From NCBI GenBank assembly GCA_049968335.1, contig JBMFQZ010000013.1:15965-79964 (forward strand): 64,000 nucleotides of DNA. Direction: 5' to 3'. A program made the position numbers and the translations under genes. Shown here piece by piece: positions 160 through 28,375 of the stretch. The DNA comes from Verrucomicrobiia bacterium (GTDB taxonomy: Bacteria; Verrucomicrobiota; Verrucomicrobiia; Limisphaerales; JAKPVM01). Below the pieces are notes generated by a model. The model was not told the origin of the DNA and made no database searches. It worked only from the letters and a program-made list of their open reading frames with translations. The number at the start of each line of letters is the position of its first letter. Position 1 is the first letter of the stretch.

Positions 160-167
160 TTCACACT

Positions 168-208: not shown

Positions 209-273
209 TAATACACTGAATTCAATGCGCAAGGTTCGCGTTTCTATCTTTACCTATCTGAATGTAAATAAAA

Positions 274-1194: not shown

Positions 1195-1291
1195 AATCTT
1201 CTATCTTAAAAATATAATAATAAAAAATGCGTTATGAATGGCGAATTGTCAACTCAATCCAAGCCATCCCCGCCGCCGATTGCTGTCGCAA

Positions 1292-1328
1292 AATCTCCGC
1301 CAGATTATCTCTCCGCTATTCAATAAAT
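1292..1328. repeat. Direct repeat copy 2 flanking htpX; overlaps the stop codon of the 513-aa gene
   Basis: AATCTCCGCCAGATTATCTCTCCGCTATTCAATAAAT, in the same orientation as the copy at 168-208. Confidence 0.6.
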
Positions 1329-2861
1329 CTTATAACTGGCTCGGGGCAAAACCTTCACGGCTTTAGACTCCGCTTTCTCCTTGTTTGAAATTTGCGCATC
1401 TCCGCTGATTGATTCGCCAATTTTGCTGCCAGATATTTCAAGCGCCCGATAAAAAATAGCATTCTCATTCTGATAAGTTATCGGAATAATCGCAGAACCG
1501 GTATTTGTAATTGTTATCTCGGCTACTACAGCCCAGTTTTGAGACAGACCTAAAACTGTTGTTGATTGAATCTGATACGTAGCATTATTTGCCCCGTAAA
1601 GAATCAAACGCCTTCCCCCATCTCCGCTCAATGTCGCTTCAAGAACCGGTTGCGCTCCGACTATGATAATCTTTCCAACAAGCGCGTAAGTATTCGCCAC
1701 ATACTGTCCATTTGTCTTGCTTGCCTGAATGCCGGAAATTACGGGAACTATAATCGTTGACGGCAAACCAGAGCCTACAAGAAAGTTAACCGCCGCAATG
1801 TTTTTCACCTCGCCATTTAAATTAAGCCCTGGCTTTAGAGGCAATTTCACTATCCAGTTGCCGTTTTGCGTAGCTATTGTCGCTGCGGCATCGTCAATCA
1901 ACGGCGAGAGAGAACCGAGCGCAGGGTTCATCAACATCCCCTGCGGCAATTGAACTGTAACCTGCAAGTTCGTCACCGGCGCAGTGGTTTCAACTGAAAT
2001 CTGGATACTGCCATTTTGGCCGGACCTGACAATCGCCTGACTTAACTCCACGGTAACCTGTTCATATCCTGTGCCAACCGTTAAACCGCTGACGGTTGCG
2101 ACTGAAAAGCCGTTTGTAAAATCAAGCGCAAACTCCTGAACAACCGAATCGCCATCTCCTAAAACCGAGACAACAAATTGTTGCTCACCCTCCGGCGAAA
2201 AATTGCCGCCCGTTATCGCAAATAACTCGCCAAGATTAAACACAACATTATTGCTCGGGCATCCATCTCCAGCAACCGCTGCCAGCGGATAGGCGGCGTT
2301 TGTGTGTAAAAGCGTCAGAACCCTTCCCATCGCGTTTGTCCCGGGAATATTCACAACCAGCAGTCTTGAATCAAGCAGAAAACTATTCGTTTTCGCAGTC
2401 CTCACCGAAAGCAGTCCGTTCTGCGGATAAACAAGCGTCTGCCCGTTCGTCATTCTGGAAATAATGTTGAAATAGTAAGTCGTGTCCGGTTTGCAGTTCA
2501 ACACACGAACTATGTAATATCCGGACTGTTCTATTCTCTGGCGAATCTGCGTTTTTGATTCTCTTCTAAAATAGGCATTAGCCGCCGAAGGAGAACCTGT
2601 ATGCAGCGGAAAATATTCTATCCCCACCTCGCCTTGAAGATTTGCGCTCCCATTTTGATCGGCGTAAACATTTATCCCCGGCGCAGACTGCGGCGCCCGC
2701 CAGATAACCGTAAACATAGATGGGGTTACATTCGCCACAACCACATTTGTGATTGATTCCCCCCAAGCCGGCGCAATTGACCAGACCAGCATCATACTGC
2801 CAATCGCGGCTCTCATCATTCTATTTACCGGCCGTTTCATTATTTCTAAAATCGTTCGCAT
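1320..2861 (-). CDS. Secreted hypothetical protein (FN3-like N-terminal module, beta-sandwich modules, C-terminal 'YQIQS...W...FYRA' module)
   Basis: 513-aa ORF with a signal-peptide-like N-terminus (MMLVWSIAPAWG). It begins 14 nt after the upstream rhodanese-like gene. VANVTPSMFTVIWRAP resembles an FN3 first strand. No catalytic motif was seen. Confidence 0.6.
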   Translation of the reverse strand: MRTILEIMKRPVNRMMRAAIGSMMLVWSIAPAWGESITNVVVANVTPSMFTVIWRAPQSAPGINVYADQNGSANLQGEVGIEYFPLHTGSPSAANAYFRRESKTQIRQRIEQSGYYIVRVLNCKPDTTYYFNIISRMTNGQTLVYPQNGLLSVRTAKTNSFLLDSRLLVVNIPGTNAMGRVLTLLHTNAAYPLAAVAGDGCPSNNVVFNLGELFAITGGNFSPEGEQQFVVSVLGDGDSVVQEFALDFTNGFSVATVSGLTVGTGYEQVTVELSQAIVRSGQNGSIQISVETTAPVTNLQVTVQLPQGMLMNPALGSLSPLIDDAAATIATQNGNWIVKLPLKPGLNLNGEVKNIAAVNFLVGSGLPSTIIVPVISGIQASKTNGQYVANTYALVGKIIIVGAQPVLEATLSGDGGRRLILYGANNATYQIQSTTVLGLSQNWAVVAEITITNTGSAIIPITYQNENAIFYRALEISGSKIGESISGDAQISNKEKAESKAVKVLPRASYKIY

Positions 2862-2875
2862 AGACTTTGCAATGG

Positions 2876-3667
2876 TTAATTGTTTTTGTCTGATTTCACA
2901 GGCGCTGTGAAGGTTGTTCCAGTCCGTTGCAACCCGGCTTTCCCCTGCCGTTCAAGTATCTTTTCGCCCCCGGCAAGGATTACAAACCGGCTTATTCCAT
3001 TTGCCTTCAAAGTCCTTGCCATCTCCTGAGCCTTGCCGTCCCCATTGTCCACAATCACAAATAACGGCGTGTATTGCGCGGCTGAAAGCGATTTTTTATT
3101 TATCCCAGAAGCAAACGGCGATTTGACTATCTTTGCCTTTGGAAATTCAGATTGCAAATCGGTCAACGCCGGCGCTTGTTGTTTCCCCGCAAGCGACTTG
3201 TTTTCAACAACAGCCGTTCGCAAATCCACAATCACAGTGTCCGCGCTCTGCAACTTCTTCAGCGCGTCATAAGTTATATACGGCATCTCTTCCCTCGTCG
3301 CCCCGGATTGCTTCGTTGTCGTCCCGATAAATGTTTCCCACGCGGCAAAACCCCCTTCAAGTATCTCGGCTTGAACCTGATTTTTCTTTTTTAAACCATC
3401 TATCGCAGCCGCAGATTTGTTCTCATGCAAACCCTCGTCATAGACTACGACGAGTTTTGCCCCGGGCAACCGTTTCTGGTCGCATATCGCAAGCGGTATA
3501 TTTATAGCGCCGGGAATATGCCCCTTTTGATATAAATCCGTTGGACGAACATCAACAATCGTTACATCCTCGCCAGCGTCAATTTTCTTCTTCAACTCCG
3601 CCGGCGTCATCCCGTTGACATCCAGCAGAATCATTCCAATTAAAAATATTCCAGTTACTTTTTTCAT
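2876..3667 (-). CDS. Secreted tandem rhodanese-homology-domain protein, predicted catalytically inactive
   Basis: 263 aa with a signal peptide. There are two rhodanese-like units (TIVDVRPTDLYQKGHIPGAINIP... and TVIVDLRT...). The positions where the active-site Cys follows the beta strand read LVVVYDEG and LFVIVDNGDG, so Asp replaces Cys in both. Confidence 0.7.
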   Translation of the reverse strand: MKKVTGIFLIGMILLDVNGMTPAELKKKIDAGEDVTIVDVRPTDLYQKGHIPGAINIPLAICDQKRLPGAKLVVVYDEGLHENKSAAAIDGLKKKNQVQAEILEGGFAAWETFIGTTTKQSGATREEMPYITYDALKKLQSADTVIVDLRTAVVENKSLAGKQQAPALTDLQSEFPKAKIVKSPFASGINKKSLSAAQYTPLFVIVDNGDGKAQEMARTLKANGISRFVILAGGEKILERQGKAGLQRTGTTFTAPVKSDKNN

Positions 3668-3673
3668 ATAGTT

Positions 3674-6600
3674 TTATTGAGGTTTAAAGTTTGAAACAGG
3701 ATTTGCCATTTCAATCAACAACACTGCCGCGTTCGGTATTGTAAAATCATTTCCCGAAATTGCGTTGTTCACAACCCGCGCTACAAGCCATTGTCCAGAG
3801 TCCGAATTAAGCATCCTGACCGCGCGCGCGTTTTGCAGCCCGAGCTGTTGTAACAATTTGTATGCCGAATAATTGTTTGGAAAACCTGCATAACTGAGCG
3901 CGTTCACTCCAGCAGGGAGATTGATTGAGGTTGCGTCATTCGCACCAAGGTCAAGAACCGCCTTTGAATCAAACCTCAACCACAACCACATCCCGGCAGT
4001 AAGGTCAAAATTATCTCCGCTTGGCGCCCCGTTTATCCATCTCACTCTCTTTGTCTCCACCTGCGGCAACAACGATGTGTAAACCGTTATCTCATCTATA
4101 TTCGCCGCGCTATGCCACATTGATAACAACGTAAAGGCGTTGCTCGCAAGATTTGCAATCGTCTCCGTCACTACAACAGCGTTCTGATTTTCAAACACCG
4201 CCTGCAACGATGGCAACTTTGCCGTTTTTACAACCGAAAGATTATTCTGGCTTTCAGACCACGCAACAACGCCGTTTCCAATCGATGGCGACGACTTCTT
4301 GCTAATCGTTCGAGTAACAGGTATAACCCGGCGGCTCGGGGCGTGAATCAATCGCAGGTTTGAATTCTCAATCCCGAAAGAATATTCCTCGCAAACAACC
4401 CACTCGCCTTCAATCCTGGGACGAGCCTCATCCTCGCTCGTCTCTGTAAGACGAATCTCTTTTCCGCGCAACAGGTCGTAGCCATAAATATCAACCTCTC
4501 CGTTGCGGTTGTCCTGCCAGACAATCCAATTGTTATATATCGTCGGCTTGTATTGACCAAAAATATTCGTGGTTATCCTTATCAGATTTCCAGTCTCAAG
4601 GTTTTTATAATATATCTCGCCATAACCCGGGTCTCTGAAGTCCTGCCAGACAACCTGTCCGGTGTGAACATCCGGATCAAGTTCATCCTGCGTGGAGGGC
4701 GCAACAGTGAAATATTGTCCGCTCAACAAATTGACTGCCCGCAATTGATACGGCGCTCCGGGCGTAAGAATATTCTTTTCCTGATAAACAACCCACGGCC
4801 AGTCAATCGCCGGATTTATCTCATCAACATCGGGCGTTGAGGTCAATCTTCGCGGCGGTTCGCTTAAAACAAGGTTTTTGAAATAGATATCAAACGAACC
4901 ATTCGGCAAACGTCCCTGCCAGACAACATAACGACCGTCTGTCTTTGGATTTTGTTGATTCAAAGTTCCTTCAGAAACGCGAACGGGCTGCTGATTGACG
5001 CCGTTTAAATCAAGCGCGTAAATCTGCCATGAACCATCGCTCTGGTCTTCCCATACAATCCAACCGCCTCTGGCAAATGCCCTGCCCGGCATACGTTCGG
5101 ACGCCACTGTCTCTTTTGTCTCGCCGGTAAACTCCTCTATCTGGATGAGTCGTGTTATAAAATTTGTCCTCCCAAGTCCATCATACAGAGTGATCCTTGC
5201 AGTATACCAGCCCGGCGGCGCCGTCAAGTTGTTATCCTTTTTACCATCCCATTCAAACGCAATCAAACCGCTCCCGATATTTGTATAAGAAAAAGTCCGC
5301 GTCCTTTCCAACAGGCTTAAATCATATCCGTAAAGCGGATTCACCACCCATGATATCGTGGTCGGCGAGTTGGTCGGTTGCCATTCTCCATTGATCCGTC
5401 CTATTGCGGCAACGGTATTTTGTCCAGAAACAAGATCGGTTAAAACAATCGGTTGACCAATATCTGTCTCCGCCCTGTAATAGCCACTGTTGATTGTCCA
5501 CCTATATTTATCAATGCTCGCTCCAGAAACCGCTAATTGCGCTGTTGCAGAACGCGACGGCGTCGTTATATTTCCAGATAGCTTTGTCACCGGCGCCCCG
5601 CTATCAACAATCCAACTCACTACAACAGCGTTGGACTCCGGTTGATAATCTCCCTGTCGCGCCCGTCCAAGCAAATATAAACTATGCCCGCCCTGCGCAA
5701 GATTTGTCAAAACAAGCTGCGCCTGCGCAGGCAATTCTACGCTCCATCCGCCGCCGTCAAGCCTGTACTTGTAATAATCCACATAATCTCCGCCAATATA
5801 AAATGTCCACTCAGTTGAACGAGTCGGCGATGAGGGTAAATTTGAAACAGTCAAAAAACCTATAACACCGGAAAATATCTCAACATTCGCATTCACCGGA
5901 GCAGGATTTGGCGACGCGCTGAAGAGAATAGACGCCTTGCCCGGTCTCAACGATACAGCGTCTCCAGAGATCACCAGAGACTTTGACGGCTGTTGAATAT
6001 CCGCAAAATTCAAATCCCCCGTTGCGCCAACAACCACAACCGCGGTTTTATCGCTCTCTCGGTTCTGGCTGGTGTCAATCGCGTAATATTTTATCAAATA
6101 TTCTCCCGGGTTGCGCAGTTTAAACGGCAGAGCCGGAATGAACGGCGAGTTCGTTATACTGTAATACATACTCACCGGGCTCTGGTCTTCGCTGATAAAG
6201 TAAATCTGGGTCTCCGGAGTTACATAATATTTGTTATCCGATTCATAAACAGGTCCGGCAAATTTGATCATTGTTGAAGGCGGCGTGGTGTCGTTCCCGG
6301 TTGAACCATACGTGATTGTGTAGCTGTAATTTCCAAGGTCAACAAGGTCAAGTATGTTCAAAAAATCCAACCTCACGTTGTTTACTTTCGTATATCGGGT
6401 ATTTCTCCAGTAATTATTTGTGTTCAAGATTTTTCCGTCGCTTCTGACAATGCTTGCAATAGGCAGTTTGCCCTGCGCAGGGTCGTTTGCCCTCATATAT
6501 CCCCAGCCGGCAATTTCAGCATTCAGGTTCAACGTCAATGTCGCGCCCGCCCCAGCCTCGCCCGCAAGCGTAAAATTAGTCAGCGTGTTAACAGGCAAAA

Positions 6601-7687
6601 TGTTGCCGTTGTTCTCATAAATCGCGTCCGGCAACATATTTTCATCGCGGTCGGTATCCGCGAGAAAATCTTTTATATTATCGCGTCCAGGCAAATCCAC
6701 GAGCACTTCATGAAGGATAAAATGAGCCTGCAACGATTTGATTATAGAGGTTTCTTCCCCGCCAAGTTCAGACGCATGAGTATAAGAGGCTTTAAATTCC
6801 ACAAACTCGCCCGAGAGCGAAGTTATCATATCCCACGCCCCTTTGCGCGCATCGCCCGGCGGTATATCGCCAAGATTTACAAGCAGCGACGCGCTGCGCG
6901 GCGAATCCTGAACTCTCGCCCCGAGCAATTGCGCAATCAACAGCAGACTCTGTTTGTTCTCAACAATCTTTGGCTGTTGCGAATTTATCTTCACGCTCCG
7001 CGCCATTCCGTAACCGGCGTTTTTTACAATGACACCAAGCGTGAACGGTATCGGGCTCTCAATCTCAGGAGTAAACGGGTCGTCCCCTTGAACATCTCGC
7101 GGCTGGAAATAAGTTATTTCAAGCAATGGCTCCGGTTTCACCGTTATTGTATCCGGGATCGCGAACAATACATCAGACGGAATCGGCGCCCCGCGAATCT
7201 TTCCCGAGAGATTGCATCCAACGCGATAGACGACGCCGTTCGCATTAGTGCCGCCGGCTGAAGGTTTGGGAATAATAAACCATTTAACAACCGCCTTGCG
7301 CGTCGGTCCAATTATGCCAGCGCCATTTATATCATTGATATTCTCCAGTTCAGGAGCCCGCACAAAAAACAATGACGACGCGTCGGCAAGCCCGGGCGCT
7401 GTCGCCGTCGCAGGCCTCTCAAACGTCAGTGATGCCGAAAAGTCGGTAATCGGGTCTTCCCCATCGTTATTCACAACTTCAAGCGTCGCTTCAAACCCAA
7501 TCCGTTCAATCGTCAATTCCTGCAATATCTCTATTTTTATCCTTGTGCATAATCCCTGAAATTGTTGTTGTCCAAAAACAAAACCGGACTGTAAAACCAG
7601 CATCAGCAACGCCAGCGCAACGCGGCATTTAATTGAATAGTGTTTCATAACCTTTTTAAAAGTGTTAAATTTTATTAATTTCTTCAT
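3674..7687 (-). CDS. Large secreted protein: CARDB-like beta-sandwich modules, Ig-like modules and a TolB/PD40-like beta-propeller
   Basis: 1,337-aa ORF that begins 19 nt after the giant gene stop. Signal peptide ALALLMLVLQSGFVFG. Modules resemble PFTLGVIVKNAGYGMARSVKI. Repeated blades carry the WIVWEDQ / YVVWQGR / WVVYQEK / QVVWQDF / WIVWQDNRNGEVDIYGYDL pattern. Confidence 0.6.
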   Translation of the reverse strand: MKKLIKFNTFKKVMKHYSIKCRVALALLMLVLQSGFVFGQQQFQGLCTRIKIEILQELTIERIGFEATLEVVNNDGEDPITDFSASLTFERPATATAPGLADASSLFFVRAPELENINDINGAGIIGPTRKAVVKWFIIPKPSAGGTNANGVVYRVGCNLSGKIRGAPIPSDVLFAIPDTITVKPEPLLEITYFQPRDVQGDDPFTPEIESPIPFTLGVIVKNAGYGMARSVKINSQQPKIVENKQSLLLIAQLLGARVQDSPRSASLLVNLGDIPPGDARKGAWDMITSLSGEFVEFKASYTHASELGGEETSIIKSLQAHFILHEVLVDLPGRDNIKDFLADTDRDENMLPDAIYENNGNILPVNTLTNFTLAGEAGAGATLTLNLNAEIAGWGYMRANDPAQGKLPIASIVRSDGKILNTNNYWRNTRYTKVNNVRLDFLNILDLVDLGNYSYTITYGSTGNDTTPPSTMIKFAGPVYESDNKYYVTPETQIYFISEDQSPVSMYYSITNSPFIPALPFKLRNPGEYLIKYYAIDTSQNRESDKTAVVVVGATGDLNFADIQQPSKSLVISGDAVSLRPGKASILFSASPNPAPVNANVEIFSGVIGFLTVSNLPSSPTRSTEWTFYIGGDYVDYYKYRLDGGGWSVELPAQAQLVLTNLAQGGHSLYLLGRARQGDYQPESNAVVVSWIVDSGAPVTKLSGNITTPSRSATAQLAVSGASIDKYRWTINSGYYRAETDIGQPIVLTDLVSGQNTVAAIGRINGEWQPTNSPTTISWVVNPLYGYDLSLLERTRTFSYTNIGSGLIAFEWDGKKDNNLTAPPGWYTARITLYDGLGRTNFITRLIQIEEFTGETKETVASERMPGRAFARGGWIVWEDQSDGSWQIYALDLNGVNQQPVRVSEGTLNQQNPKTDGRYVVWQGRLPNGSFDIYFKNLVLSEPPRRLTSTPDVDEINPAIDWPWVVYQEKNILTPGAPYQLRAVNLLSGQYFTVAPSTQDELDPDVHTGQVVWQDFRDPGYGEIYYKNLETGNLIRITTNIFGQYKPTIYNNWIVWQDNRNGEVDIYGYDLLRGKEIRLTETSEDEARPRIEGEWVVCEEYSFGIENSNLRLIHAPSRRVIPVTRTISKKSSPSIGNGVVAWSESQNNLSVVKTAKLPSLQAVFENQNAVVVTETIANLASNAFTLLSMWHSAANIDEITVYTSLLPQVETKRVRWINGAPSGDNFDLTAGMWLWLRFDSKAVLDLGANDATSINLPAGVNALSYAGFPNNYSAYKLLQQLGLQNARAVRMLNSDSGQWLVARVVNNAISGNDFTIPNAAVLLIEMANPVSNFKPQ
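4250..5090 (-). other. Beta-propeller region (6-7 'VWQD...DIY' blades) of the 1,337-aa protein
   Basis: Periodic W-[IV]-V-W-[QE]-D motifs about 45-55 aa apart. Coordinates are approximate. Confidence 0.55.
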
Positions 7688-7706
7688 CGTCCAGCGGTTT
7701 AAATTT

Positions 7707-10700
7707 TCACTTGTTAATGTAAAATGCCTTCACAAGTTCATCAGGCGAAAGTCCGCACCTGTCGCGAACAAGCACGCCGTTTGCAAAGAACGCCTGGTCC
7801 TCCTTCAACACAAGTGAATAGACTGTTTGTTTATCTTTCAATTTAGAAACAGACCTTATAACCGTGTGCTTACCATCAGGCTTCATTAACCAATCGCCTG
7901 CTGTCAATTGGCGCGCAAGCGTCCACCCCTTGCCATCAACCCAAAACGCGTGATCGCCAGTTGCAATGACACTCTTCTGTTCCGACCCTTCGCTGCCAAA
8001 TTCAATCCTGTATAACTCATCGCTCGTTCGCTGGGTTACGAGTCTGACCTGCGCCTTTTCTTTCTCTGAATACCCTGTCCTCACCCAATCGCCTATCTTT
8101 ACCATCTGTATCGGTTTGGTCTTTCCATCCGCCATCAATACCGATGTCCCTTCCACAAAACAGACGGGACTGTAGAAACCATAACCTGAACCAGTTGAAT
8201 AACCGCCACCGCCACTGCCACTACCTGGACCTGTCAACTGTTGCGCAAGACAAGTAACAAGTCCCATTGCAAAACTGATAGGCCATGGCACGCTCGGACA
8301 GGGCGACGGCAAGAAACCTAACGGACTGAACCCGGGCGAACAGAATAGCGAATAGACTACAACAAGTCCTGCCGCCGCTTTTAACGCTCCTCGTAAATCG
8401 GCGCACTGTCCATCCCCGCTAAACCTTGCGGCGATCGTCGCGATATCTTGCAAAAATTGGGCTAACCCGACAAGTCCACCGGTTACACAATCTGCATAGT
8501 CTTTCCCATCAAACTTTGGTTTTGCCCCGCTTTTTGCGGCTACGTTAATCCTTGCCTGATTTGTTCCACCGATATAGACCGTCTGCAACGGTACCTCAAC
8601 CGATTCCTGCGGCAATAAGACAGGGATATAATCAATCAGCGGAACAAGTGTTGCATTGGGTAACTCAGTCCCTTCAATGATCACATCATTCAACTGCAAT
8701 AATCCGGCGTTTTTAACTATCGCGATTATCGTTGCCTCAAACCCAGGCGGCACGTTTTCATACTTCACCATCGGCGGCGTTACAACAAGCACAGGAACCG
8801 GAACGTGCGTTTCAAATGTCTGTTCAATCTTTATCTCGTATTTATCAGTAAACGGCACCGGCTCAACGGTAAAATTGACAGTAACAAGATTTCTGGACAG
8901 CCTGACGCTCACAAGTTGCGTCTGGTCAGGTTCAACCGTAACAGTCCCGCTCATCGGACTATGCCCGGGCGCAGTAACAAGATATGACCAGTCGCCTTCC
9001 TGAAGGTTTGTAATCGTGGTATATCCGTTTGCGTCGGTCGTAGAGGACAACTCTTGATTCAAAACCAGATTCTTTATTCTCACAGTCGCGTTCGGCACTG
9101 GGTAAGTTAAAATATTATCAACAAAGAACCTTACGTTCCCGCTCTTGCTTGATGTTACAAGGGTAAAGATGTTTATCTTGAATGTCCCCGTAAGATTCGT
9201 TCCACCGATGACGAGTGAGTCCTCGTGATATTCAAGTGATGTATCTTGCGGCGGCGCAGCCACAACCACGAATGTATTTGACCCACCAACTGGGATATCT
9301 GGAAGGTGAATCAAACCATCCTGCGCAATCGGAAGGTTAACTCTGACCCACCCAGTATTCGTGGGCGGTATTATATATGCGCCAGATAAATCGTTCATCC
9401 CCCGATTTACCACCGTTATTGAGCGGCTCTTGAAATCGCCCCTGTTAACGCTCATCTCAACATAACCAACAGCAGGATCAACAACAGATAACACCGGGAC
9501 TGCTGGCAATAACGTTACATTCCCAACAACAGTTGCCGATGCCCCTTCCCCAGACCTCACAATAAATTCAACTATTGCATTGTCCGGAGCATCCACCGCA
9601 GCGCCAAGGCTCATCTGTAGTGACCTCCTCTCCCTTGGACCCAAAACGAAATTCTCAGGTATCCCGACACTACCTGTTACAGTACTTATTGGCACACTAT
9701 TGGTACCCTCCATCCTATAAGCCCTGAATTCATAACCGAAATTGGACATCTGTTCATCACCCGGATTGACCAGTGTAACTGAGAAGTCTATAGAACCATT
9801 CTTTGACATCCGTATGTCAAATTGCTGCGGTGTCACATAAATTCGGTAAACCTTTATCTCCACTTGATTCAATACATCAAATATATCCGGATGCGCAGCC
9901 CAGATTTTTATCGCTCCGCTTAACCCCCTCTGCGGCTCATAAATAAACTGATAGTTTCCACTCTCATCAGTTACTACATCCTTGTAGAAACGATAACCCT
10001 GCGTGAAGAATCCGATCTTCAACGGCGAATTCGGTTTTGGTTGCCCGGTAGCGCGGTCAATTGCTTGACCGGTGATGGTCACGTTCTCGTTGTTTGCATA
10101 GAACTGTTTATCGGTATTCGCAGTACCATAATAAGGTGTCTGAATAAGCGCGCTAACAAGCGAACCAGTTAACGGTCCGGAAATCGTCTCGTCGCTTACA
10201 GCAATCTTGTTGTAAATCTTCTCAACAACCGCCTCAATATACGCTGCATTTGTCCCAAGCGATGCCGGTATCAAAACATTGCTAACCGTTATCAATTTGA
10301 ACGATTCTGACGGTATCCTAACAAACGCCCGTCCGTCCGGTGCCATCATAATTCCCGCAGGCATTCCACTGTATTGAACACGATTCACCTCCTGACCAAA
10401 CATATTCTTAACCGATATATACAAATCGCCCGGGTCATTCCCCTGATTCCTTGATAACACAACGTCAATAGGAACATCAGAACGATTGTAAATCTTCACA
10501 TCAAACGAAGCCAATCCACCACTAACCGGCTGTTCATTTGCAGACATCTCAATCATCACCCGCGATGGACGATAATTGTCAAAACTAAACGCTTTCTGGT
10601 ATGTGACAGTTGTTGCAGGATCTGGTGTTGCTTGAACCACTTTTACTAAAAATGCCTGTCCATATTGTTCCCGTGCCGATGGAAATACTACAAACCGCTC

Positions 10701-19700: not shown

Positions 19701-22700
19701 CTGCGTGCTTACAACAACAATGTCCTTTATATTATCATTATCTATATCGTCAACAACCGCATAAATAGGCGACCTTCCCACCGCAATAAATGAAGGTCCT
19801 CCAAATGTCCCATCGCCATTCCCCAATCTAACCGCAATATTATTTGCGCTTTGATTAACGCTAATTAAGTCCAACTTACCATCGTTGTTTATATCCTTAA
19901 TCTCAACGCATCGTGTTCCGGTACCAGTTGTTATATCTCCTATTTTCAGGAATGTGCCATTCCCATTACCTTTAAACAGGCTAATATTTCCACCATTATA
20001 GTTTGCTGTAACTATGTCAAGCAGACCATCGTTATCAATGTCTCCAACCTTTACATCTAATGGAGACTGACCTGTTATATTAGTTGAATAAAAGTTAAAT
20101 GTCCCATCTCCATTGCCTGTTAATATATATAATTTACTATCATTATAATTAATCGCGGCGATTTCTAACTTATTATCTAAATTAAAGTCAGCTACCGCGC
20201 AACTTTGCAATGAATAACCAATCGAGTAATTTGTAAATAGATTAAATGTTCCATCCCCATTTCCCTTAAACAGATTCATATTGCCAGAATAACACGGCAT
20301 AATTACATCCATTTTGCCATCATTATTAAAATCGCCCTTGGCAATATAATTTGGCATATCGCTCGCTTGAATCACCCCGCCAAATGAGAATGATCCATCA
20401 CCGTTAGTCCTCGCAATCAATCCAAGCGGCGAAGCAGAAATTAACAAATTATTATTTCTCGTTTCATTAACATATCCGGGAACGCCGCTAACTGTAAAAT
20501 ACCTGACATAGTTTGTCCCTAATGTGTTATTCCCTGTATCGGCGAGATTTGAACTGACGATAAATCGGTAATTACCCGGTTGGAGCGGACCGTCCACTAT
20601 AGTATAGTTCGCTGTAAGTCCAGAAGTATAACCCGAATATACAGTATAAACCTCATCATCCGCTGTTCCGAACTGTAAATCCTGCCCAGCATTTCTTAAT
20701 TCATAATTTCCCGAATTTGTAACCGTTACAGGACCCATATCTTCCGAATACGATACAGTAAATGAGTTTATAATATCGGTTGTCGTCCCGTTGTTAGTTG
20801 GAAAACTGTCCCCGGTTATATATGGCGGTATTAAATCCGCAGTTTCTACATTTAACAAATATGAAGCATAAATGCCTGGCGCTTTGTAATTTTGCGGCGC
20901 TAACGCAATCCAGTATATCGTTCCATTTATATTGCCATTGAATCCATTAGTGCTTGAATCTAAAACCGTATTACCGCTTGATTGATTCATACTATAGTAC
21001 GCAACAAGACCATCTTCTACCCCAGCTAATGATTTAAACATATTTGACACTATTCCGTCTTGAGTTAATGACTTATTCCACAGCCTTACTTCAGCCATTA
21101 ACCCGTTAAATGATGAGGCATAGTTGCCTCTTCCAATCCTTAATACTTCATTATTGTCCACGTTTGCCGCAGCTTCACTATTAGTATTAATCCCTGCTAA
21201 ATTGCCATTAACATATAGATAGAATATTCCATTGCTTCTAACCCCCGCTATATGATACCAGTTACCCGGCGTAAGTAGTCCCGAAGTAACCGCTGAATTA
21301 CCGGATATTGTGCTATAAAAATTCACTTTAAACAATGGCTGTATATCCCCATAAGTGTTTATTTCAAGCGCCCAACCTGGATAATTCTGATAATAGGATT
21401 TGCTAAGAATTACATTAGCGCTATTCCCGCCCAGCGCTAATGGCGGCACATAAACTAACGTCTCAACACTAAAGTCATTAGTCCCAAAGTTCAATTTGCT
21501 ATTATTTGGCGTCGTTATTTGAGCGCCGTTGATGTTAATTCCATTCCTAAATGTATCAGTGAAACCATACTGTCCGCTCGCTACCCTCGCGTAAAATGTT
21601 GAATCTCCTCCGACAGGTATATTATAAACAATATTTGTTCCGGTAAGCGGTGAATTGGTCACAAGTTGTCCCGCCTGATTATATATTTCAAAGACTGATG
21701 GAAATCTATAATCTGCCGGCTGCAACAACTTCATCATAATAGATGAACCATACGATAGGTTGCCAATTCTATAATAATCACCCTCAGAATCATTGATATG
21801 TATAATTCCGCCAATATTTGCCACCCTCTTATTTCCGACTAAATTGAAATTAAGCGCGTTTGCCGAACTTATACTTCCATTATTCTCAGACTCAATCTGT
21901 ATATTTGATCCGTATTTAATTAAATTAAATCTGTATTCGCCTCTATAACTATAATTATAAGACACCCGCACATAATATCTACCACTAACTGGTAACACTG
22001 TAGCCAACTGTCCATATCCCCTATAATCTGTGTAAAACGAACTTATCTCATTGCCACTTGGATTAAGAATACTATATCTTAATCCAGAATTATATGGAGA
22101 ATTCGGATTTTCAGTTGCTATTATAACCTTTTCACCAGCAATTCCTTGGAAACTCCAGAAGTCTACATCATTGTTATCTACTAAATTGCCGCGCCCTATC
22201 ACGCTTGAATATCCCGGTGCAATACTACCAATAAGTATTGATTTATTACCAAACAGTATTGTTACACTATTCCTATAATAATTTGCAGTAGCAATGTCTG
22301 GTATTCCATCAGAGTTAAAATCGCCTACGCAAACACTTATGTCATCCGGATCGTTCGGTATACTATACACACTCTTACCCTCAAAACCACCCCCTGCCTT
22401 CCCAAGCATCACCACCACACTATCATATTGATATGTCGGCACTACTATATCTAACCTCCCATCACCATTCAAATCCGTTAGCATAAACTGAAACGCATTG
22501 TGCAAACTATCCCCATAACTGTTCGCACCACTAAACCCTCCTAACCCGTCTCCATAAAATACCTTAATCGTCCAGTTGCTCGCATCCAGCGCCACTATAT
22601 CTAACTTCCCATCCCCATTCACATCCCCTAACCTCACAAATATACAATTCCCACCTACACTCACACCCCCACCATCACTAAACCCGCCCACACCATCCCC

Positions 22701-25700
22701 TATCAATACCTTAACAGTCTGACTATAATACCCAGCAACCGCTAAATCCACCTTCCCATCACCGTTCACATCCCCATAAGCAACACTCTCTGCTCCATCA
22801 TTGGCTCCTACATTAACCCTGTTCGTAAAATTACCATCACCAACCCCATACCATACCGTAACATTATCCCCATTATAATTCGCTGTCACTATATCTAACT
22901 TCCCATCCCCATTCACATCCACTATCTCCACCCAGTACGGATTATTGCCAACACTAAAATTCACAGCATTGCTAAATACCCCATCGCCTCCATTTATAAA
23001 TACACTCACACTGTGCGAATAATAATTCGCCACCACTATGTCGTTCTTATTATCTCCATTCAAATCCGCTACCCCAACAGATACAGGCCCATCCCCAGCT
23101 GCATAGTTCGTCAATCCCCCAAACGCCCCATCCCCATTGCCAAATAATATGCTTATATTGTCAGAGGTATGATTTGCTGTTACTATGTCAAGATTAGTAT
23201 CAGAATTAATCCTCGCCGTTGCTATTGATTGGGGCTTTGAACCAACACTAAACGTACCCCCTATCGTTAACGACCCATCACTAATGTTTGTAACAATGCC
23301 AAGTGGCGTCGCGCCAGTTGTAGAATCGTTATTCCTTGTTTCATTGACCATTCCCCCAATACCTATTATAGTGAAATATTTAACGTAGTTAGTTGATAAT
23401 GGATTTAAGAACTTATCTTGAATATTTGTTTTTATTATAAATCTGTACTGTCCAGGCTGCAATGGTCCATCAGGAATTGAATAATTTACTGTTAATCCTG
23501 CTGTATATCCAAGTGGATTAACAGTGTAAATTTCATCATCAGATGTATCATATATTCCATCTACTCCTGGAGTGCGTAAATCATAGTTCGTAATATTATT
23601 TATTACTACAGAATTCATATCTTCAGAATAAGTAACTGAAAATAGCGATATAATATCCGACGAACTTGTTACTGGTAATGAATCGGTGATTATTTGTGGA
23701 GATTTGGAATCATTTATATCAACATTGATTATATATTGCGCAGTTAAACCGATAGCCTGAATACCATTAATCTCACGTATTCTGACTGGCGAACCATTAA
23801 AGGTTCCATTTTTAGCATTTATACTTGAGTCATAAGCAATACTACCTGCAATCTCATCAAACTTCCAGTAACCTATCAGTCCGTTCTCGTCCGCCGCTAT
23901 TTGTGGTTCCCTATTTGTGGCATAATTCATTATCTCTGTATAACTCAAGACTCTATTCCACAATCTTACATTATCAATCGCTCCCGGGAATCTATTTTCC
24001 GAACAACATGGCTCTCCTCTAATCCAGAAATCATCATACGGCGTATAATTAACCTCAACCGGTCCTGCCGCTTTCAGAACGCCATTTATATATAAAAATG
24101 CGTTCGTGCCATCGCACATAGCTAATAAGTGTACCCATTCTCCGACGACCGCAGGAGCATCGTTTGTATAAGTTACTGAACACCCACCCGGAGGACGAAC
24201 CATTACGCCGTAATAACCATCCTGCATCGTAATCCCCCAGTCTTTGCAATTCGCTGCGCTGCCCGCAATCGACTTTCTACCTGATGTCAGATAACTCGGT
24301 TTCGCCCAGGCTTCAACACTCCATTTACTCCCAACTGATACTGAACCGACACGAACATAACCATAATTATTATCAAAGTATAAGTACCCCCTCAATCCAT
24401 CCACCTGCCCTGCTCTTACTCTCGCATAATAATAACCATTGCTTCCTTGCGGGATTGTGTAAGTTAAATTTGTAGCCCCATTAGTTGACGCGGCAACCAG
24501 TGTCCCGCTTGAATTATAAATTTCAAATACTCCGTTTAATAAACTAAAATCAGGCTTTGAATATAATAAATTGATGGTAGTTCCAGAATCCTGATACCCT
24601 AACTTATAAAAATCTCCGCTATCATCATAATAATGTATAAATCCTAAGATATTGCCCTTCAAATGTTGCAATGTTGGTTCAAGATAGATTGTATTCGCAT
24701 TATTAATATCGTTATTAGCTTCTGATTCAATCGTAAGTGGCTGCCTTGCCAGTAAAACACTTATTCTATATTCGCCTCTATAATCGTAATTAGATGATAC
24801 CCGCACATAATATGTTCCGCTTACAGTTATATTAATTGGACCTGATTGTCCCCATCCACGATAATCTGAATAAAAATAAGTTATCCTGTTACCGGCTGGA
24901 TCATAGATTTGATAAAATAGTCCGCTATTTTCAGGATTATTTAACGTCTCAACAGCAACAATTACTACATCCCCCTGCTGCGCGCTAAAACTGTAGTAAT
25001 CGTTATCATTGTTATCATATAAACGACCTCTGCCAAAATAACTTTTAACACCGCTCCCTTCTGGATTTTCCACGACATATTTTCTTGAATTACCAGTCAA
25101 AATCGTTACGCTATTTTTATAATAATTTGCAGTAGCAATGTCTGGTATTCCATCAGAGTTAAAATCGCCTACGCAAACACTTATGTCATCCGGATCGTTC
25201 GGTATACTATACACACTCTTGCCCTCAAATCCTCCCCCAGCCTTCCCAAGCATCACCACCACACTATCATAAGAATATGTCGGCACTACTATATCTAACC
25301 TCCCATCACCATTCAAATCCGTTAGCATAAACTGAAACGCATTGTGCAAACTATCCCCATAACTGTTCGCACCACTAAACCCTCCTAACCCGTCTCCATA
25401 AAATACCTTAATCGTCCAGTTGCTCGCATCCAGCGCCACTATATCTAACTTCCCATCCCCATTCACATCCCCTAACCTCACAAATATACAATTCCCACCT
25501 ACACTCACACCCCCACCATCACTAAACCCGCCCACACCATCCCCTATCAATACCTTAACAGTCTGACTATAATACCCAGCAACCGCTAAATCCACCTTCC
25601 CATCACCGTTCACATCCCCATAAGCAACACTCTCTGCTCCATCATTGGCTCCTACATTAACCCTGTTCGTAAAATTACCATCACCAACCCCATACCATAC

Positions 25701-28217
25701 CGTAACATTATCCCCATTATAATTCGCTGTCACTATATCTAACTTCCCATCCCCATTCACATCCACTATCTCCACCCAGTACGGATTATTGCCAACACTA
25801 AAATTCACAGCATTGCTAAATACCCCATCGCCTCCATTTATAAATACACTCACACTGTGCGAATAATAATTCGCCACCACTATGTCGTTCTTATTATCTC
25901 CATTCAAATCCGCTACCCCCACAGATACAGGCCCATCCCCAGCTGCATAGTTCGTCAATCCCCCAAACGCCCCATCCCCATTGCCAAATAATATGCTTAT
26001 ATTGTCAGAGGTATGATTTGCTGTTACTATGTCAAGATTAGTATCAGAATTAATCTTTGCCGCTACAATTGAGTACGGATTTGACCCAACAGCAAAAGTC
26101 CCTCCAGTAGTTAACGAACCATCAGCAATATTAGTAACAATACCCAACGGCGTCGCAGTAGAAAAGGCGCCATTATCTTCAAGTTCATTAACCCACCCTG
26201 CCCCTGCGAGCGAAACAACTGAAAAGTTCCTTGTAAAAATAGAACTCAATCTATTGCCAACAAGGTCTATTATGTTCGTGCCAATTTTAAAAACATACGC
26301 GGCAGGTTTTAGCGGACCGTTAATAATACCCAATGTAATATTTGTTCCTCCGGAAACACTTGCCACCTGTAAATTATAAATTCTGGAACCATCGACAGTT
26401 TGCAAAGCATAGTTCGCAAGATTAGTCAACTGACCCGTTTGAATCTGCTCTGAAAAAACAACAGTTATACTATAAATTAAATCCTGAGTTGAGCCCCCAT
26501 CTGATGGGAGGGAAATTGATTTTACCACCGGCGGTGTAGCGTCGTTGATTGTGATATCAAGATGATATTGATTGCGAATCCCAATATTCGTTGAATTCAC
26601 TCGTAAATAATAACCTCCATCGGACATCACTACATAATATAAATTGCCACTATAATTTGTTTCTACCGCAATACCACTATCCTTCTCTAATATCATTATA
26701 ATATCATTCTTCGCCATCTCGCTCCCAGTCGGAACCGCAGCATTCACGCTAATTGAATTCCCAGAATTCAAAACAAACAACCGATAATAGTCGCCGGCTG
26801 TGTCATCCCTGCCTAAAACGCCCGCAACTTTTGCGCTATAATTTTGCGCTACATTCGTAAATGCAAGTTGAGTTGCTTGCCCCTGCGTGTTGTTCGGTTC
26901 AATCTCAAGTTGCGTTATCCTGCCAATGTCAAATCGTAAATAATATTGCGCCTTTCCGCCCGGGCTCCTTACCTTAACATAATAATCTCCAGTCTGAGTG
27001 ATAGAATAATTCTGAATCGCGGCATAACCTGAATTGCCTGTTGCGGATGTAAGCGATTGATTGAGGGAATTTTGCAGCTCTATAGAGACCGAAACACTTG
27101 CCCCATATGGCAATGTATCAAGCCATAGCGTTAATCTGTCGCCAGCCTGCGCTGAAAAAAGCCAGTAATCAATATCATTCGTTGAACTAAACACGCCGAT
27201 GCCTGTTGCGGTTAAAAATCCGCTCCCCGAAGGGCTTTCTGATGGCGTAACTACTGTGGCAAGGTTAGGACCATCATTGTTAAGCGCGTTTTCAAGTATC
27301 CCATTAACCGGATTTATAATATAGAAAGCGGTTTGAAACTCGGCTACAGGATTTGAGTTTGTATCAAGCAGGGTCGGTTTTGTTTTGAAGCGGTAATGTC
27401 CCGGTTGTAAAGGCGAAGGGGTGATATCAATGAAAATTCCGCGTGGCTGGAGCTGTATCGGCGACGGAGTAAGCGTGTAAACCACATCGTCCGAATCGCC
27501 AAAGATCCCATTTCCGCCATCGCTCCGTAGTTCAAAATTTGCCGGCTCCGCCGCAGACAATGCTAAAAACGAGTTATTTCCATAGAGATATATTGTGCTA
27601 ATCGCAACGGCGTTTGTAGAATTTTGCGCTGGCAATGAAGAAGCGGCAATATAAGTCTGGGCGCTGGATTTAAAGACCGCAACATTATCAATCCCCCAGG
27701 ACTCATTGTCAATTGATTCAAGGTTCTGTCCTTGAAAAGTAATTGTGGCTGAGTTAGTTAAGGCAGTAAATGAAACAGTAATGTATCTGTAAATTGCATC
27801 GTTGTATGAATTAAATCCAAAATTGCCAGTTTGAGTTGGTGTACCTGGAAATGTCTGGCTGCCGCCAAAATTGTTAAATGTGTAATGAAAGATTTGATTG
27901 CCATTAACATTAATGTTTAAATAATCGCTTGAGCCGCCATCCCACGAGTCAATGGCGTAAAAATCAAAGGCGATAGTGTAATTATCCCCGGCGGTGAGAT
28001 TCGTCAATGCTAATGAAATAGCGTTATTGCCATTCCGGCCGGCGAACCTGGTGAATATGGCAGGATAACTACTATCAATAGATAGACCGCTCCATTCTTC
28101 AAATACGCCCGACTCAAAATCGGTGTAATAGGGAGTTGTTGACGGCGTTTGTTGGGCAGCAAATCCGAGCCAGGGGGTAAAAATTGCTGCCAATAGAAAG
28201 GCTGTGGTCTTGTTCAT
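7707..28217 (-). CDS. Giant secreted mosaic surface protein (6,836 aa) with a C-terminal Hint domain
   Basis: Uninterrupted 20,511-nt ORF with an N-terminal signal peptide. Motif-level domain series: jelly-roll ([10 protein letters not shown]). Then three units of Ig-like + FG-GAP/VCBS propeller + 2 PPC + LamG, followed by a C-type lectin. Then PPC x2, CARDB x2, InlB-B-like repeats, FN3 x2, a parallel beta-helix, Ig/FN3 series and many CARDB-like sandwiches. It finishes with a CarboxypepD_reg-like domain, a Cys-rich hydrophobic segment, a Gly-rich linker and a Hint domain. Confidence 0.85.
   Translation of the reverse strand: [6836 protein letters not shown]
7758..8162 (-). other. Hint (Hedgehog/intein-like, BIL-type) autoprocessing domain, 135 aa, followed by only 16 residues
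   Basis: [27 protein letters not shown] (block A with Cys1 at 8160-8162), ATGDHAFWV (TxxH block B) and [22 protein letters not shown] (blocks F/G). The usual terminal His-Asn is Arg-Asp here. It is preceded by the linker [23 protein letters not shown]. Confidence 0.8.
8900..9110 (-). other. Carboxypeptidase-regulatory-like (CarboxypepD_reg) beta-sandwich
   Basis: [57 protein letters not shown]. Confidence 0.6.
10915..11690 (-). other. Three consecutive fibronectin type III-like modules
   Basis: [33 protein letters not shown]..., [23 protein letters not shown]...FRIYRN..., and ...[19 protein letters not shown]... Confidence 0.65.
13490..14060 (-). other. Right-handed parallel beta-helix region
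   Basis: Successive short turns: [77 protein letters not shown]. The region ends in NWWGS. Confidence 0.5.
14075..14665 (-). other. Two fibronectin type III-like modules
   Basis: [24 protein letters not shown]...FRVYIS...[13 protein letters not shown] and [23 protein letters not shown]...FRLYYE...[13 protein letters not shown]. Confidence 0.7.
15000..15700 (-). other. Four InlB-B-repeat-like (Listeria-Bacteroides type) repeats
   Basis: [83 protein letters not shown], and [24 protein letters not shown]...YRFKEFK. Confidence 0.55.
15730..16440 (-). other. Two CARDB-like modules
   Basis: [35 protein letters not shown]... and [32 protein letters not shown]... Confidence 0.6.
17520..17865 (-). 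other. Animal-type C-type lectin domain with intact EPN / WND sugar-calcium motifs
   Basis: [27 protein letters not shown]...[54 protein letters not shown]. EPN is near 17613-17621 and WND near 17559-17567. The domain is followed by the Asp-rich [17 protein letters not shown]. Confidence 0.8.
18190..18665 (-). other. LamG / concanavalin-A-like lectin domain (copy 3)
   Basis: [16 protein letters not shown]...FTVEAWVY...WVHIAVV...LYTNGIL...[16 protein letters not shown]. Confidence 0.75.
19390..20440 (-). other. FG-GAP/VCBS repeat beta-propeller (copy 3, divergent)
   Basis: [95 protein letters not shown], each followed by a GNGDGTF-type turn. Confidence 0.8.
21040..21550 (-). other. LamG / concanavalin-A-like lectin domain (copy 2)
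   Basis: [11 protein letters not shown]...[21 protein letters not shown]...[16 protein letters not shown]. Confidence 0.7.
22275..23211 (-). repeat. Near-identical internal repeat, copy B (FG-GAP/VCBS propeller 2)
   Basis: Aligns without indels to 25119-26055 at a constant offset of 2,844 bp. About 8 differences are visible in ~937 nt, and only one in the last ~790 nt. Confidence 0.9.
23900..24400 (-). other. LamG / concanavalin-A-like lectin domain (copy 1)
   Basis: [14 protein letters not shown]...WSVEAWAKP...[21 protein letters not shown]...[16 protein letters not shown]. Confidence 0.7.
25119..26055 (-). repeat. Near-identical internal repeat, copy A (FG-GAP/VCBS propeller 1)
   Basis: Encodes [30 protein letters not shown]...[17 protein letters not shown]. 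It matches copy B over 312 aa except for one residue (S versus Q in PTYSYDS / PTYQYDS). Confidence 0.9.
28158..28217 (-). other. Sec-type signal peptide of the giant protein
   Basis: [20 protein letters not shown] followed by AQQTP. Confidence 0.6.
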
Positions 28218-28347
28218 AAAATTGTCTGGGTTCTATGTCGGCAAATAGATTTGCGCTTAACACGATGCTCTGGAATCATTGCAATATTCACTTGCTGACT
28301 TTTATTTCATCTGCTCGTGTTAGTAAGCTTCTTGATTCCATTACCGA

Positions 28348-28375
28348 GTGTACAAATAATGAACAAAATGTCAAG
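28348..28375 (-). promoter_or_regulatory. Candidate sigma70-like promoter for the giant gene
   Basis: The minus strand reads TTGACA-16 nt-TACACT, about 130 nt upstream of the ATG at 28217. Confidence 0.3.

Follow-up and report, generated by a model that had tools for sequence, protein, structure and literature searches.

How a protein of about 700 kDa could leave a diderm cell and stay attached to it is the question raised by a four-gene cluster of a Verrucomicrobiia bacterium (GenBank assembly GCA_049968335.1, contig JBMFQZ010000013.1, positions 15,965 to 79,964), a stretch of 64,000 nucleotides (nt) that we refer to as the window. The way in which diderms outside the Proteobacteria export and hold very large surface proteins is poorly understood, and the cluster offers a concrete, widely conserved and testable case. 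The original prediction, made from the letters of the window, had described four same-strand open reading frames (ORFs) of 6,836, 1,337, 263 and 513 codons, with gaps of 19, 6 and 14 nt and the first ORF filling 32% of the window; the ORF call places all four on the minus strand, the gaps are exact in its coordinates, and the giant gene measures 20,511 nt. We call the giant the A-protein and the product of the next gene, g2, the B-protein, followed by g3 and g4. Signal-peptide-like starts, also foreseen, can be read in all four products as a basic n-region, a hydrophobic h-region (short in g3, 12 amino acids (aa)) and an AXA-like site. We consider it somewhat more probable than otherwise that the cluster is a self-contained cassette of four genes encoding a huge, non-enzymatic fibre of the cell envelope, with export by a Sec and type II secretion system (T2SS)-like route, self-cleavage by a C-terminal Hint domain and a base made of g2, g3 and g4.

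Conservation of the cassette and the wider A/B family

One genome per species was scanned with the g2 alignment, which gave 78 loci, and the proteins of the window were compared with every ORF found there. In about 55 species-level loci the order is invariant, i.e., a Hint-ended giant, a g2 homologue, a rhodanese-like gene and a g4 homologue, and 8-10 further metagenome loci have the same arrangement. The carriers belong to Verrucomicrobiota (Pedosphaerales/Limisphaerales, Opitutales, Puniceicoccaceae, Haloferula), Kiritimatiellota (Pontiella, cultured Pontiellaceae) and Lentisphaerota, and Pedosphaera parvula and Pontiellaceae B1224 are cultured examples. The fixed order, together with flanking genes that vary from locus to locus, is indicative that the four genes travel as a cassette. 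Synteny beside Hint-terminated giant genes, proposed earlier as a check, is thus kept in ~55 genomes of three phyla. Of the proposed operon for a surface mega-adhesin with dedicated partners, the unit and its partners are supported by synteny and by fusions, whereas the adhesive function and the surface location did not gain such support. The combination of a giant with a terminal Hint had been called unrecognised; the Hint terminus itself is nearly universal in the clade (~68 of 69 members, always terminal), whereas a description of the cassette was not found in Pfam, NCBIfam or the literature searched, which does not prove novelty. No specific family was found for g2, g3 or g4 in Pfam or NCBIfam.

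Two parts of the cassette reach far beyond this clade, namely a region near the C-terminus of the giant (the A-module) and the N-terminal part of g2 (the B-module). An exhaustive search of 1.84 billion representative proteins (clusters at 50% identity) found the B-module in 2,640 clusters, of which 1,727 fall below 1e-30; in almost all cases it spans residues ~30-460, and the proteins are 600-3,300 aa long. The A-module has matches outside the clade in Methylomonas (E 6e-96), Eleftheria (E 3e-100), Nostoc (E 1e-25), Saccoglossus (E 3e-21) and metagenome loci. On plasmid pCC7120alpha of Nostoc PCC 7120 (locus L087), the two modules are fused in one protein of 5,297 aa (WP_044523664; A-module aa 1682-2194, B-module aa 2691-3111), which also has Calx-beta, LamG, a subtilase-like region read from the sequence, and RTX repeats, so that it is probably type I-secreted. 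In the hemichordate Saccoglossus kowalevskii (XP_006822956.1, P0169, 7,485 aa), three tandem A...B units lie in a single membrane protein, with an RRKR furin-type site after a Cys-rich segment in at least the first two units, EGF, CUB, IPT/TIG and cadherin-like parts, and a C-terminal transmembrane anchor. Physical cooperation between the giant's end and the start of g2 is supported mainly by the fusions in Nostoc and Saccoglossus, and Nostoc PCC 7120 is a tractable organism for the A-B interaction. A B-module homologue also occurs in the crustacean Halocaridina rubra (KAK7084501.1, P0181, 3,746 aa). The hemichordate and crustacean proteins suggest that animals acquired the same docking pair, and this looks like an ancient transfer into metazoans.

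The rhodanese-like protein accompanies these modules beyond the clade. It is encoded beside the B-protein in L082, L083, Methylomonas koyamae, Eleftheria terrae and Geothermobacter hydrogeniphilus, and the A-module, the B-module and the rhodanese-like protein occur together in the window, the ~55 genomes, Methylomonas, Eleftheria, Geothermobacter and L082. Several of these relatives carry Rhs elements. A single Methylomonas protein runs from the A-module through a Gly-rich linker and Rhs/YD repeats to a C-terminal toxin-like domain, an Rhs gene directly follows the A-protein gene in Eleftheria, and DUF6531 and Rhs ORFs directly follow an A-like ORF in Geothermobacter. Metagenome contigs were also scanned with a diverse B-module alignment, which yielded 80 loci on short contigs; the neighbours visible there were rhodanese-like genes (43), transglutaminase-like genes (26), the A-module (21), Rhs (18), g4 (14) and Hint (10). 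A-module and Rhs matches fell in one and the same upstream ORF at nine of the 80 loci, and 20 of the 26 transglutaminase-like ORFs keep Cys- and His-containing patterns of a papain-like catalytic site. Hint was found with g4 in 8 loci and with the rhodanese-like gene in 10; the pairs of Hint with Rhs, Hint with transglutaminase and g4 with transglutaminase were each seen in none of the 80. To judge from these sequence comparisons, the cassette of the window is a Hint-terminated, toxin-less branch of a family that also has Rhs-toxin-carrying branches. This wider A/B/rhodanese family is apparently undescribed.

Some loci of the clade deviate in gene structure. In L001 (ENA contig_84216), g2 and g3 form one protein of 1,610 aa (P0108), and in L015 (JAKQDD010000100.1, 2-13894) the giant ORF has no stop after the Hint and continues into the signal peptide and body of g2; both could be either natural variants or assembly errors. 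A family of ~527-aa ORFs recurs after g4 in 8 loci, including Kiritimatiellota and one Lentisphaerae locus (among others L016, L022, L029, L054, L061 and L063, besides L051). Its representative in L051 (16087-17787) is an S8 subtilase (PF00082, E 1e-26) with an FGE-sulfatase/TSP3 protein next to it, and this subtilase may be a clade-specific processing protease.

Architecture of the giant protein and its partners

Table 1. Parts of the cassette and its upstream promoter-like site, in window coordinates.
Feature	Residues	Position	Strand	Basis or remark
Giant gene, A-protein	6,836 aa	7707..28217	-	ORF, Pfam map, orthologues
Sec-type signal peptide, MNKTTAFLLAAIFTPWLGFA before A	1-20	28158..28217	-	Read from sequence
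Variable lectin-like head	21-3590	17448..28157	-	Pfam
Conserved stalk	3591-6045	10083..17447	-	Homology across ~50 loci; Pfam
A-module	6046-6560	8538..10082	-	CARDB-like, CarboxypepD_reg, VTVNFTVEPVPFTDKYEIKIEQTFETHVP beta-sandwich
Cys-containing Ala/Gly/Leu-rich helical segment	6577-6660	8238..8489	-	Conserved C6577, C6605, C6656; 59-sequence alignment
Gly/Ser-rich linker, ending at the predicted scissile bond V6685/C6686	6661-6685	8163..8237	-	Alignment
Hint domain	6686-6821	7755..8162	-	PT-HINT 30.7 bits; solved Hint/BIL structures
Tail after Hint, GLSPDELVKAFYINK	15 residues	7710..7754	-	Too short for a toxin domain
g2, B-protein	1,337 aa	3674..7687	-	ORF; homologues of ~1,335 aa
B-module of g2	40-480	6248..7570	-	Three to four beta-sandwiches right after the signal peptide; invariant Cys47
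TolB/tricorn-like beta-propeller of g2	~851-1140	4268..5137	-	TIGR04275 repeats, 106 bits (cut-off 85)
g3, exported tandem rhodanese-homology protein, no catalytic Cys	263 aa	2876..3667	-	PF00581, E 7e-19
g4	513 aa	1320..2861	-	Conserved directly after g3 in 55 loci; AlphaFold2 model
Cohesin-like module of g4	~268-400	1662..2060	-	pLDDT 80-92; Foldseek PDB
Promoter-like TTGACA-16-TACACT		28347..28374	-	~130 nt upstream of the giant ATG; consensus scan only

The C-terminus of the giant was compared in an alignment of 59 orthologous sequences that are 31-60% identical overall (Table 1). The conserved part behind the head spans ~3,250 residues and ends with the A-module, the Cys-containing helical segment of ~100 residues, the Gly-rich linker and the Hint domain. 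The conserved Cys residues suggest that the helical segment may be a disulfide-stapled extracytoplasmic module. We rejected this pre-Hint hydrophobic segment as a general inner-membrane anchor, as its Kyte-Doolittle maxima are 1.06-2.07 and many orthologues never reach 1.6. A Gly-rich linker at the same position stands before the Rhs part in Methylomonas and before the A-B junction in Nostoc.

The Hint call is supported by the PT-HINT score, obtained on a 680-aa slice and above the gathering cut-off of 27.7, and by profile matches to solved structures of Hint and bacterial intein-like (BIL) domains (2lwy, 8w20, 6tmm) at E 1e-19 to 3e-17. The residues that define the superfamily, a Cys or Ser at position 1 and a block-B T-x-x-H, are present as C6686 and T6753-G-D-H6756, and the domain ends in VRD6819-R-C6821. 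Across the 59 sequences Cys1, T-x-x-H, WxDGxGW and the C-terminal D-x-C motif are at least 90% conserved, and the clade ends in LV-[H/R]-[D/E/Q]-x-C-G with the terminal Asn absent. Hint chemistry starts with an N-to-S acyl shift and cleaves at the N-terminal junction (PMC7765530). By this alignment, the domain keeps the residues expected to carry out the acyl shift (Cys6686, Thr6753, His6756); since these N-terminal catalytic residues are conserved and the terminal Asn is lacking, cleavage at the N-junction via a thioester is predicted and not splicing. An intein was rejected on the V-R-D-R-C end, the lack of a conserved C-extein and of a homing endonuclease, and the terminal rather than inserted position; an A-type BIL was rejected because the terminal Asn is absent throughout the alignment. 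The tails behind the Hint measure 11 to ~60 aa and are unconserved across the 59 and 10 further metagenomic relatives, and with at most ~60 unconserved residues there a toxin-releasing PT-HINT was rejected as well. About half of the tails (L002-L071) end in a loose [K/T/M]-E-[V/A]-x-x-[R/K/P], which could be a C-terminal recognition tag; the tail of the window (...AFYINK) does not match it. A conserved terminal Hint with no cargo calls for a function different from toxin release or splicing.

The modules that had been read in the giant (FG-GAP/VCBS, LamG, C-type lectin, PPC, CARDB, FN3, beta-helix and a terminal Hint) were all matched by Pfam, beta-helix weakly (Beta_helix, E 0.0024, under the cut-off). 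FG-GAP/FG-GAP_3 matches occupy 19 stretches that form three propellers, and Laminin_G_3 (three times), Lectin_C, PPC, Big_5, CARDB, Flg_new_2 (InlB-B-repeat-like), fn3 and CarboxypepD_reg were also found. Their reading as binding modules and not enzymes holds, given that g3 has no catalytic Cys in its 58 homologues and the models of g2 and g4 are all-beta; the Hint looks like the sole enzyme-like part of the cassette. The stalk consists of PPC, CARDB, Flg_new_2, fn3, beta-helix, Big_7/Big_13 and RGI_lyase-like beta-sandwiches. In the related loci, whose upstream sequence was viewed to 10 kb, it is 37-52% identical to the upstream giant ORF at ~50 loci, throughout the visible 10 kb.

In the head, three super-modules (each Big_5-like, FG-GAP propeller, two PPC, LamG) precede a C-type lectin and a TSP3-like Ca loop, a content that suggests possible binding to carbohydrates or surfaces. 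Orthologues of 7,284, 6,850, 3,463 and 3,475 aa represent two length classes, ~3,460 aa (stalk only) and ~6,850-7,280 aa (with an FG-GAP/LamG/lectin-type head); the 3,463-aa orthologue has no head, and L001 has I-set domains in its place. The head of the window has a G+C content of 38-43% (18000-26000) against ~47% in the stalk and partner genes, a difference consistent with a head gained or exchanged through recombination. A direct repeat of 1,068 nt with 96% identity (25089-26156 and 22245-23312; aa 688-1043 and 1636-1991) lies in propellers 1 and 2, and the super-modules that hold it have diverged outside it. The repeat points to a recent duplication or gene conversion, and in a metagenome-assembled genome it could also be an assembly error. 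The head swaps, the low G+C and the internal repeat together mark the head as the fast-changing part of the protein. Just past the C-type lectin, roughly at the head/stalk transition, sits one thrombospondin-type-3/dockerin-like Ca-binding motif, SGSDSDGDGFIDVVDPYPNDP (window 17457-17519, giant aa 3567-3587), a candidate partner of the cohesin-like module of g4. TSP3_bac repeats are also present in proteins of the B family and, in Nostoc, in the stretch that separates A from B.

Over 800 proteins are homologous to the B-protein; their length hardly varies (~1,335 aa), their identity to it is 53-59%, and the mean column identity is 68%. The AlphaFold2 (AF2) model of the B-module has a predicted local distance difference test (pLDDT) score of 73, and Foldseek returns generic Ig-like folds (integrin legs, transglutaminase beta-barrels, antigen I/II); a FlgD-Ig-like domain, located beyond the B-module, was the sole match of g2 in a PDB profile search. 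The propeller also has a weak TolB match and a precomputed Tricorn_N. A lipoprotein was rejected on reading the sequence, as Cys47 lies 8 residues beyond the predicted cleavage site with Leu at -1 and no lipobox. The partner g3 follows g2 in every full locus. Its active-site positions are D/G at 77 and D at 207 in the 58 homologues, and with no catalytic Cys in either half g3 is a pseudo-enzyme; a role as persulfide donor to the Hint thioester (thiocarboxylate chemistry) was rejected on the same missing Cys. In g4, an FN3-like N-domain and a beta domain precede the cohesin-like module and a C-terminal beta-sandwich that ends ...FYRALE. Foldseek matches the module to cohesins (e.g., 1g1k, E 9e-9) with TM scores of 0.72-0.78 (target-normalised). 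Neither g2 nor g4 is likely to be an outer-membrane barrel or an enzyme, candidates that we rejected because the two AF2 models, of moderate quality, are all beta-sandwich and the Foldseek matches are Ig-like or cohesin only.

Around the cassette, scans found zero promoter- or terminator-like sites in the 19/6/14-nt junctions, and promoter and terminator scans within the cluster were not above shuffle expectation and therefore contribute little to the operon argument. HtpX (274..1194) was rejected as a fifth gene, as it has no homologue in the related loci and seems to own promoter-like sites. The pseudopilin-like fragment noted at 1-159 is real; it encodes the C-terminus of an H-X9-DG-CTERM protein (TIGR04294, 21.8 bits, cut-off 19), which we take to be a prepilin-type family, and the 3' end of its gene (plus strand) is convergent with the cassette. 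As this family has many paralogues in genomes of the Planctomycetes-Verrucomicrobia-Chlamydiae (PVC) group, the fragment by itself is weak evidence of a link to the cassette. Elsewhere in the 64-kb window lie housekeeping genes, glycoside hydrolase genes and LptE but no genes for secretion, and Rfam and tRNA scans of the window returned nothing.

Proposed export, cleavage and anchoring

The original prediction left export and attachment unexplained. The canonical signals are indeed not found, but one relative lies inside a complete type II secretion cluster. Pfam reported none of the RTX, two-partner secretion (TPS), autotransporter, LPXTG or PEP-CTERM families in the giant, in line with the claim that these signals and a C-terminal tag of type IX secretion (T9SS) are lacking. 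The single T9SS-like signal, Por_Secre_tail at aa ~1231-1271 (20.3 bits against a cut-off of 27), is internal and sub-threshold and hence not a C-terminal tag; T9SS cargo was rejected on this ground. An RTX adhesin of type I secretion (T1SS) was rejected as Pfam found no RTX and the window has no ATP-binding cassette (ABC) or membrane fusion protein (MFP) genes, and type V secretion as the four proteins have no TPS or barrel match in Pfam or NCBIfam and the g2 N-terminal and g4 models are beta-sandwiches.

The relative in question is Eleftheria terrae (L089, NZ_CP106952.1). Its cluster begins with the A-protein, Rhs, an ankyrin protein and the B-protein, continues with GspG (above the NCBIfam cut-off), GspF, GspE and three small genes, after which come a secretin that bears a Pfam Cohesin domain at its C-terminus, three pseudopilins and, last, a rhodanese-like protein and a transglutaminase. 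The secretin (30022-32406) is annotated 'cohesin domain-containing protein', a name that hides its TPR-STN-secretin part in front of the C-terminal cohesin. The secretin cohesin matches the fold predicted in g4, and the cluster makes a T2SS-like route the best available explanation for crossing the outer membrane. Sec/T2SS is given as the default route for HINT toxins with signal peptides (PMC3482391), and giant genes of Omnitrophota adjoin T2SS-like loci (bioRxiv 10.1101/2023.11.21.568195). The giant of the window has a Sec-like leader, and T2SS genes were found adjacent only in the Eleftheria relative.

In the arrangement that we slightly favour, Sec would export all four products. The Hint would turn the V6685-C6686 peptide bond into a thioester and cut itself off in a Hedgehog-like manner, leaving a mature protein of ~6,685 residues whose A-module end would dock on the B-module of g2. 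A cell-proximal base would putatively be formed by g2 (via its propeller), g3 and g4 (via its cohesin-like module), and the giant would cross the outer membrane through a T2SS-like machine of the kind seen in the Eleftheria relative, here encoded at another place in the genome. The clade would then be a toxin-less derivative of Rhs-carrying sister cassettes.

Several observations weigh against this arrangement. No secretin or GspE/F/G homologue was found within 10 kb in 158 other loci or in the 64-kb window, and the T2SS adjacency comes from a single relative. The support for a docking of A on B comes from the fusions. The cohesin call in g4 is by fold only, as Pfam Cohesin has no sequence-level match there; the whole-chain AF2 model of g4 is mediocre (pLDDT 68), and Pfam scans of the cassette proteins found no dockerin anywhere in the cassette. 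The giant orthologue of L001 ends with no Hint, which makes self-cleavage dispensable to the cassette, and under periplasmic oxidation a disulfide to the conserved downstream Cys could trap Cys1.

A different possibility is that the Hint ligates the giant to the envelope. An amine or hydroxyl of a peptidoglycan stem peptide, phosphatidylethanolamine, lipopolysaccharide (LPS) or g2 would attack the thioester, and the giant would be tied by its new C-terminus in a self-contained sortase- or Hedgehog-type reaction. This would be a new anchoring chemistry in bacteria if true, and we regard it as unlikely. In its favour, Hint-less sister cassettes encode an active transglutaminase-like Cys enzyme that never co-occurs with Hint in the 80 metagenome loci. 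Such papain-type enzymes work via a thioester. The Hint catalytic residues are strongly conserved with no cargo behind them, g2 has its invariant Cys47 near the mature N-terminus, and the Hint is the last domain and is preceded by a flexible Gly linker, a layout shared with Hedgehog (PMC7765530). However, the tails are unconserved and offer no acceptor-recruiting region behind the Hint, position -1 varies (G, V, A, E, P), L001 manages with no Hint, and the exclusion between Hint and transglutaminase may merely mirror phylogeny. Cys47 also occurs in the Hint-less animal and Nostoc fusions and is thus more likely to form a disulfide.

The family repeatedly has a processing or ligating activity in the same position, as the Hint, the transglutaminase-like enzyme, the S8 subtilase (beside Kiritimatiellota cassettes and in the Nostoc protein) or the animal furin-type site. 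This recurrence keeps covalent anchoring alive and is no evidence for it. Taken further, the Hint would be a built-in, single-use transpeptidase for which the sister transglutaminase in trans and the animal furin cut are substitutes, and the modules would be an accessory apparatus of the T2SS; we think this improbable. If true, it would mean a self-catalysed covalent anchor for a ~700-kDa diderm fibre, a counterpart of Hedgehog lipidation, sortase and glycosylphosphatidylinositol (GPI), and the A-module, B-module, rhodanese-like and cohesin-like proteins would be an unrecognised T2SS accessory apparatus that presents giant proteins and Rhs toxins.

We likewise doubt that the cassette is a toxin-losing descendant of a polymorphic toxin in which the Hint is an irrelevant relic and the giant is held non-covalently by g2, g3 and g4. 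Relatives do hold Rhs toxins at the same position, a PT-HINT normally stands just before the toxin (PMC3482391), and L001 lacks the Hint. Against a relic speaks its retention in ~68 of 69 clade members, with Cys1, T-x-x-H, WxDGxGW and D-x-C kept at 90% or above across three phyla despite overall identities of 31-60%.

It is quite improbable that the giant stays inside the envelope as a periplasmic or intramural scaffold that works with the TolB-like g2. The TolB-like propeller, the presence of only Sec signals on all four proteins and the lack of an outer-membrane export component in the window and the 158 related loci would fit such a scaffold, but the lectin-type head (C-type lectin, LamG, FG-GAP) and the Rhs-toxin relatives point outward, the homologue in Nostoc belongs to the type I-secreted RTX proteins, those in animals form extracellular portions of membrane proteins, and the Eleftheria cluster has a secretin. 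A genuine polymorphic toxin, in which the Hint frees a C-terminal toxic peptide and one of the downstream genes gives immunity, would agree with the Sec signal, the long filament-like body, a PT-HINT above the Pfam cut-off and the Rhs-toxin relatives, and is already disfavoured as very improbable, for only 15 residues follow the Hint here (at most ~60, unconserved, in relatives), the next gene, 19 nt away, encodes a 1,337-aa exported structural protein with 53-59% identity unlike an immunity gene, and between A and B the relatives of the Rhs type have 1-2 kb of additional genes that this clade lacks.

Comparison with known systems

LapA and SiiE are rods of several thousand residues, built of beta-sandwiches with adhesive modules, at the surface of Gram-negative bacteria; they have C-terminal RTX/T1SS signals, ABC/MFP/TolC genes and no Sec leader. 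The giant is likewise a beta-sandwich rod with lectin-like modules, but it has a Sec leader, no RTX and no such genes. With the cohesin-dockerin system of cellulosomes the cassette shares the cohesin fold predicted in g4, to which the Pfam Cohesin of the Eleftheria secretin can be added, and it has no link to glycoside hydrolase assembly. The giants of Omnitrophota (bioRxiv 10.1101/2023.11.21.568195) are also exported PVC proteins with adhesion domains near type II/type IV-pilus-like genes, but they are much larger and have SecA-like domains and transmembrane regions; 'intein' and 'rhodanese' have zero occurrences in that text. Four unannotated families are joined in the cassette, which connects them with the delivery of Rhs toxins and, through one genome, with a dedicated T2SS whose secretin bears a cohesin.

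By sequence, the closest solved relatives of the Hint are BIL and toxin-associated Hint domains (2lwy_A, E 2.5e-18; 8w20_A, E 1.2e-19). As far as Amitai et al. (2003) is covered by PMC7765530, BILs are self-cleaving and occur in variable secreted bacterial proteins, in hypervariable regions and non-conserved hosts. The cassette Hint, in contrast, has a fixed place at the end of a protein conserved among orthologues, and its clade ends in H/R-[D/E/Q]-x-Cys where A-type BILs end in His-Asn. Hedgehog/Hog proteins (PMC7765530) share the terminal Hint of a secreted protein, the small-residue/Gly-rich junction before the N-terminal Cys, T-x-x-H and the absence of a terminal Asn, so that the layout is most like that of the Hedgehog C-terminal domain, although by profile the Hint is nearer to BIL/PT-HINT (BIL, E 2.5e-18) than to Hog (Hedgehog, E 0.0025-0.03). 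Unlike Hedgehog, the cassette has no sterol-recognition or other conserved region behind the Hint, and its cargo is a 6,685-residue bacterial fibre.

PT-HINT polymorphic toxins (Zhang et al. 2012, PMC3482391) resemble the giant in their signal peptide, long filament-like body and near-C-terminal Hint, and here a secretion signal does precede a long body (~6,600 aa of beta-sandwich and propeller modules). The cassette differs in having three structural partner genes in place of a toxin domain and an immunity gene, and 'rhodanese' and 'FG-GAP' have zero occurrences in the text of that paper. The Rhs/YD carriers Methylomonas koyamae (WP_221054685), Eleftheria terrae (WP_301260260 and WP_301260259) and Geothermobacter hydrogeniphilus HR-1 share the stalk and A-module (26% identity over ~1,500 aa, E 1e-96 to 1e-100), the Gly-rich linker at the same place, and B-module and rhodanese-like proteins next door. 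They differ in having an Rhs cage, a toxin and an immunity-like gene at the place of the Hint; Methylomonas and Eleftheria have an active transglutaminase-like gene in the stead of g4, whereas Geothermobacter has a g4-like gene and no detected transglutaminase. In essence, no known kind comes closer than Sec-dependent polymorphic toxins with PT-HINT or Rhs.

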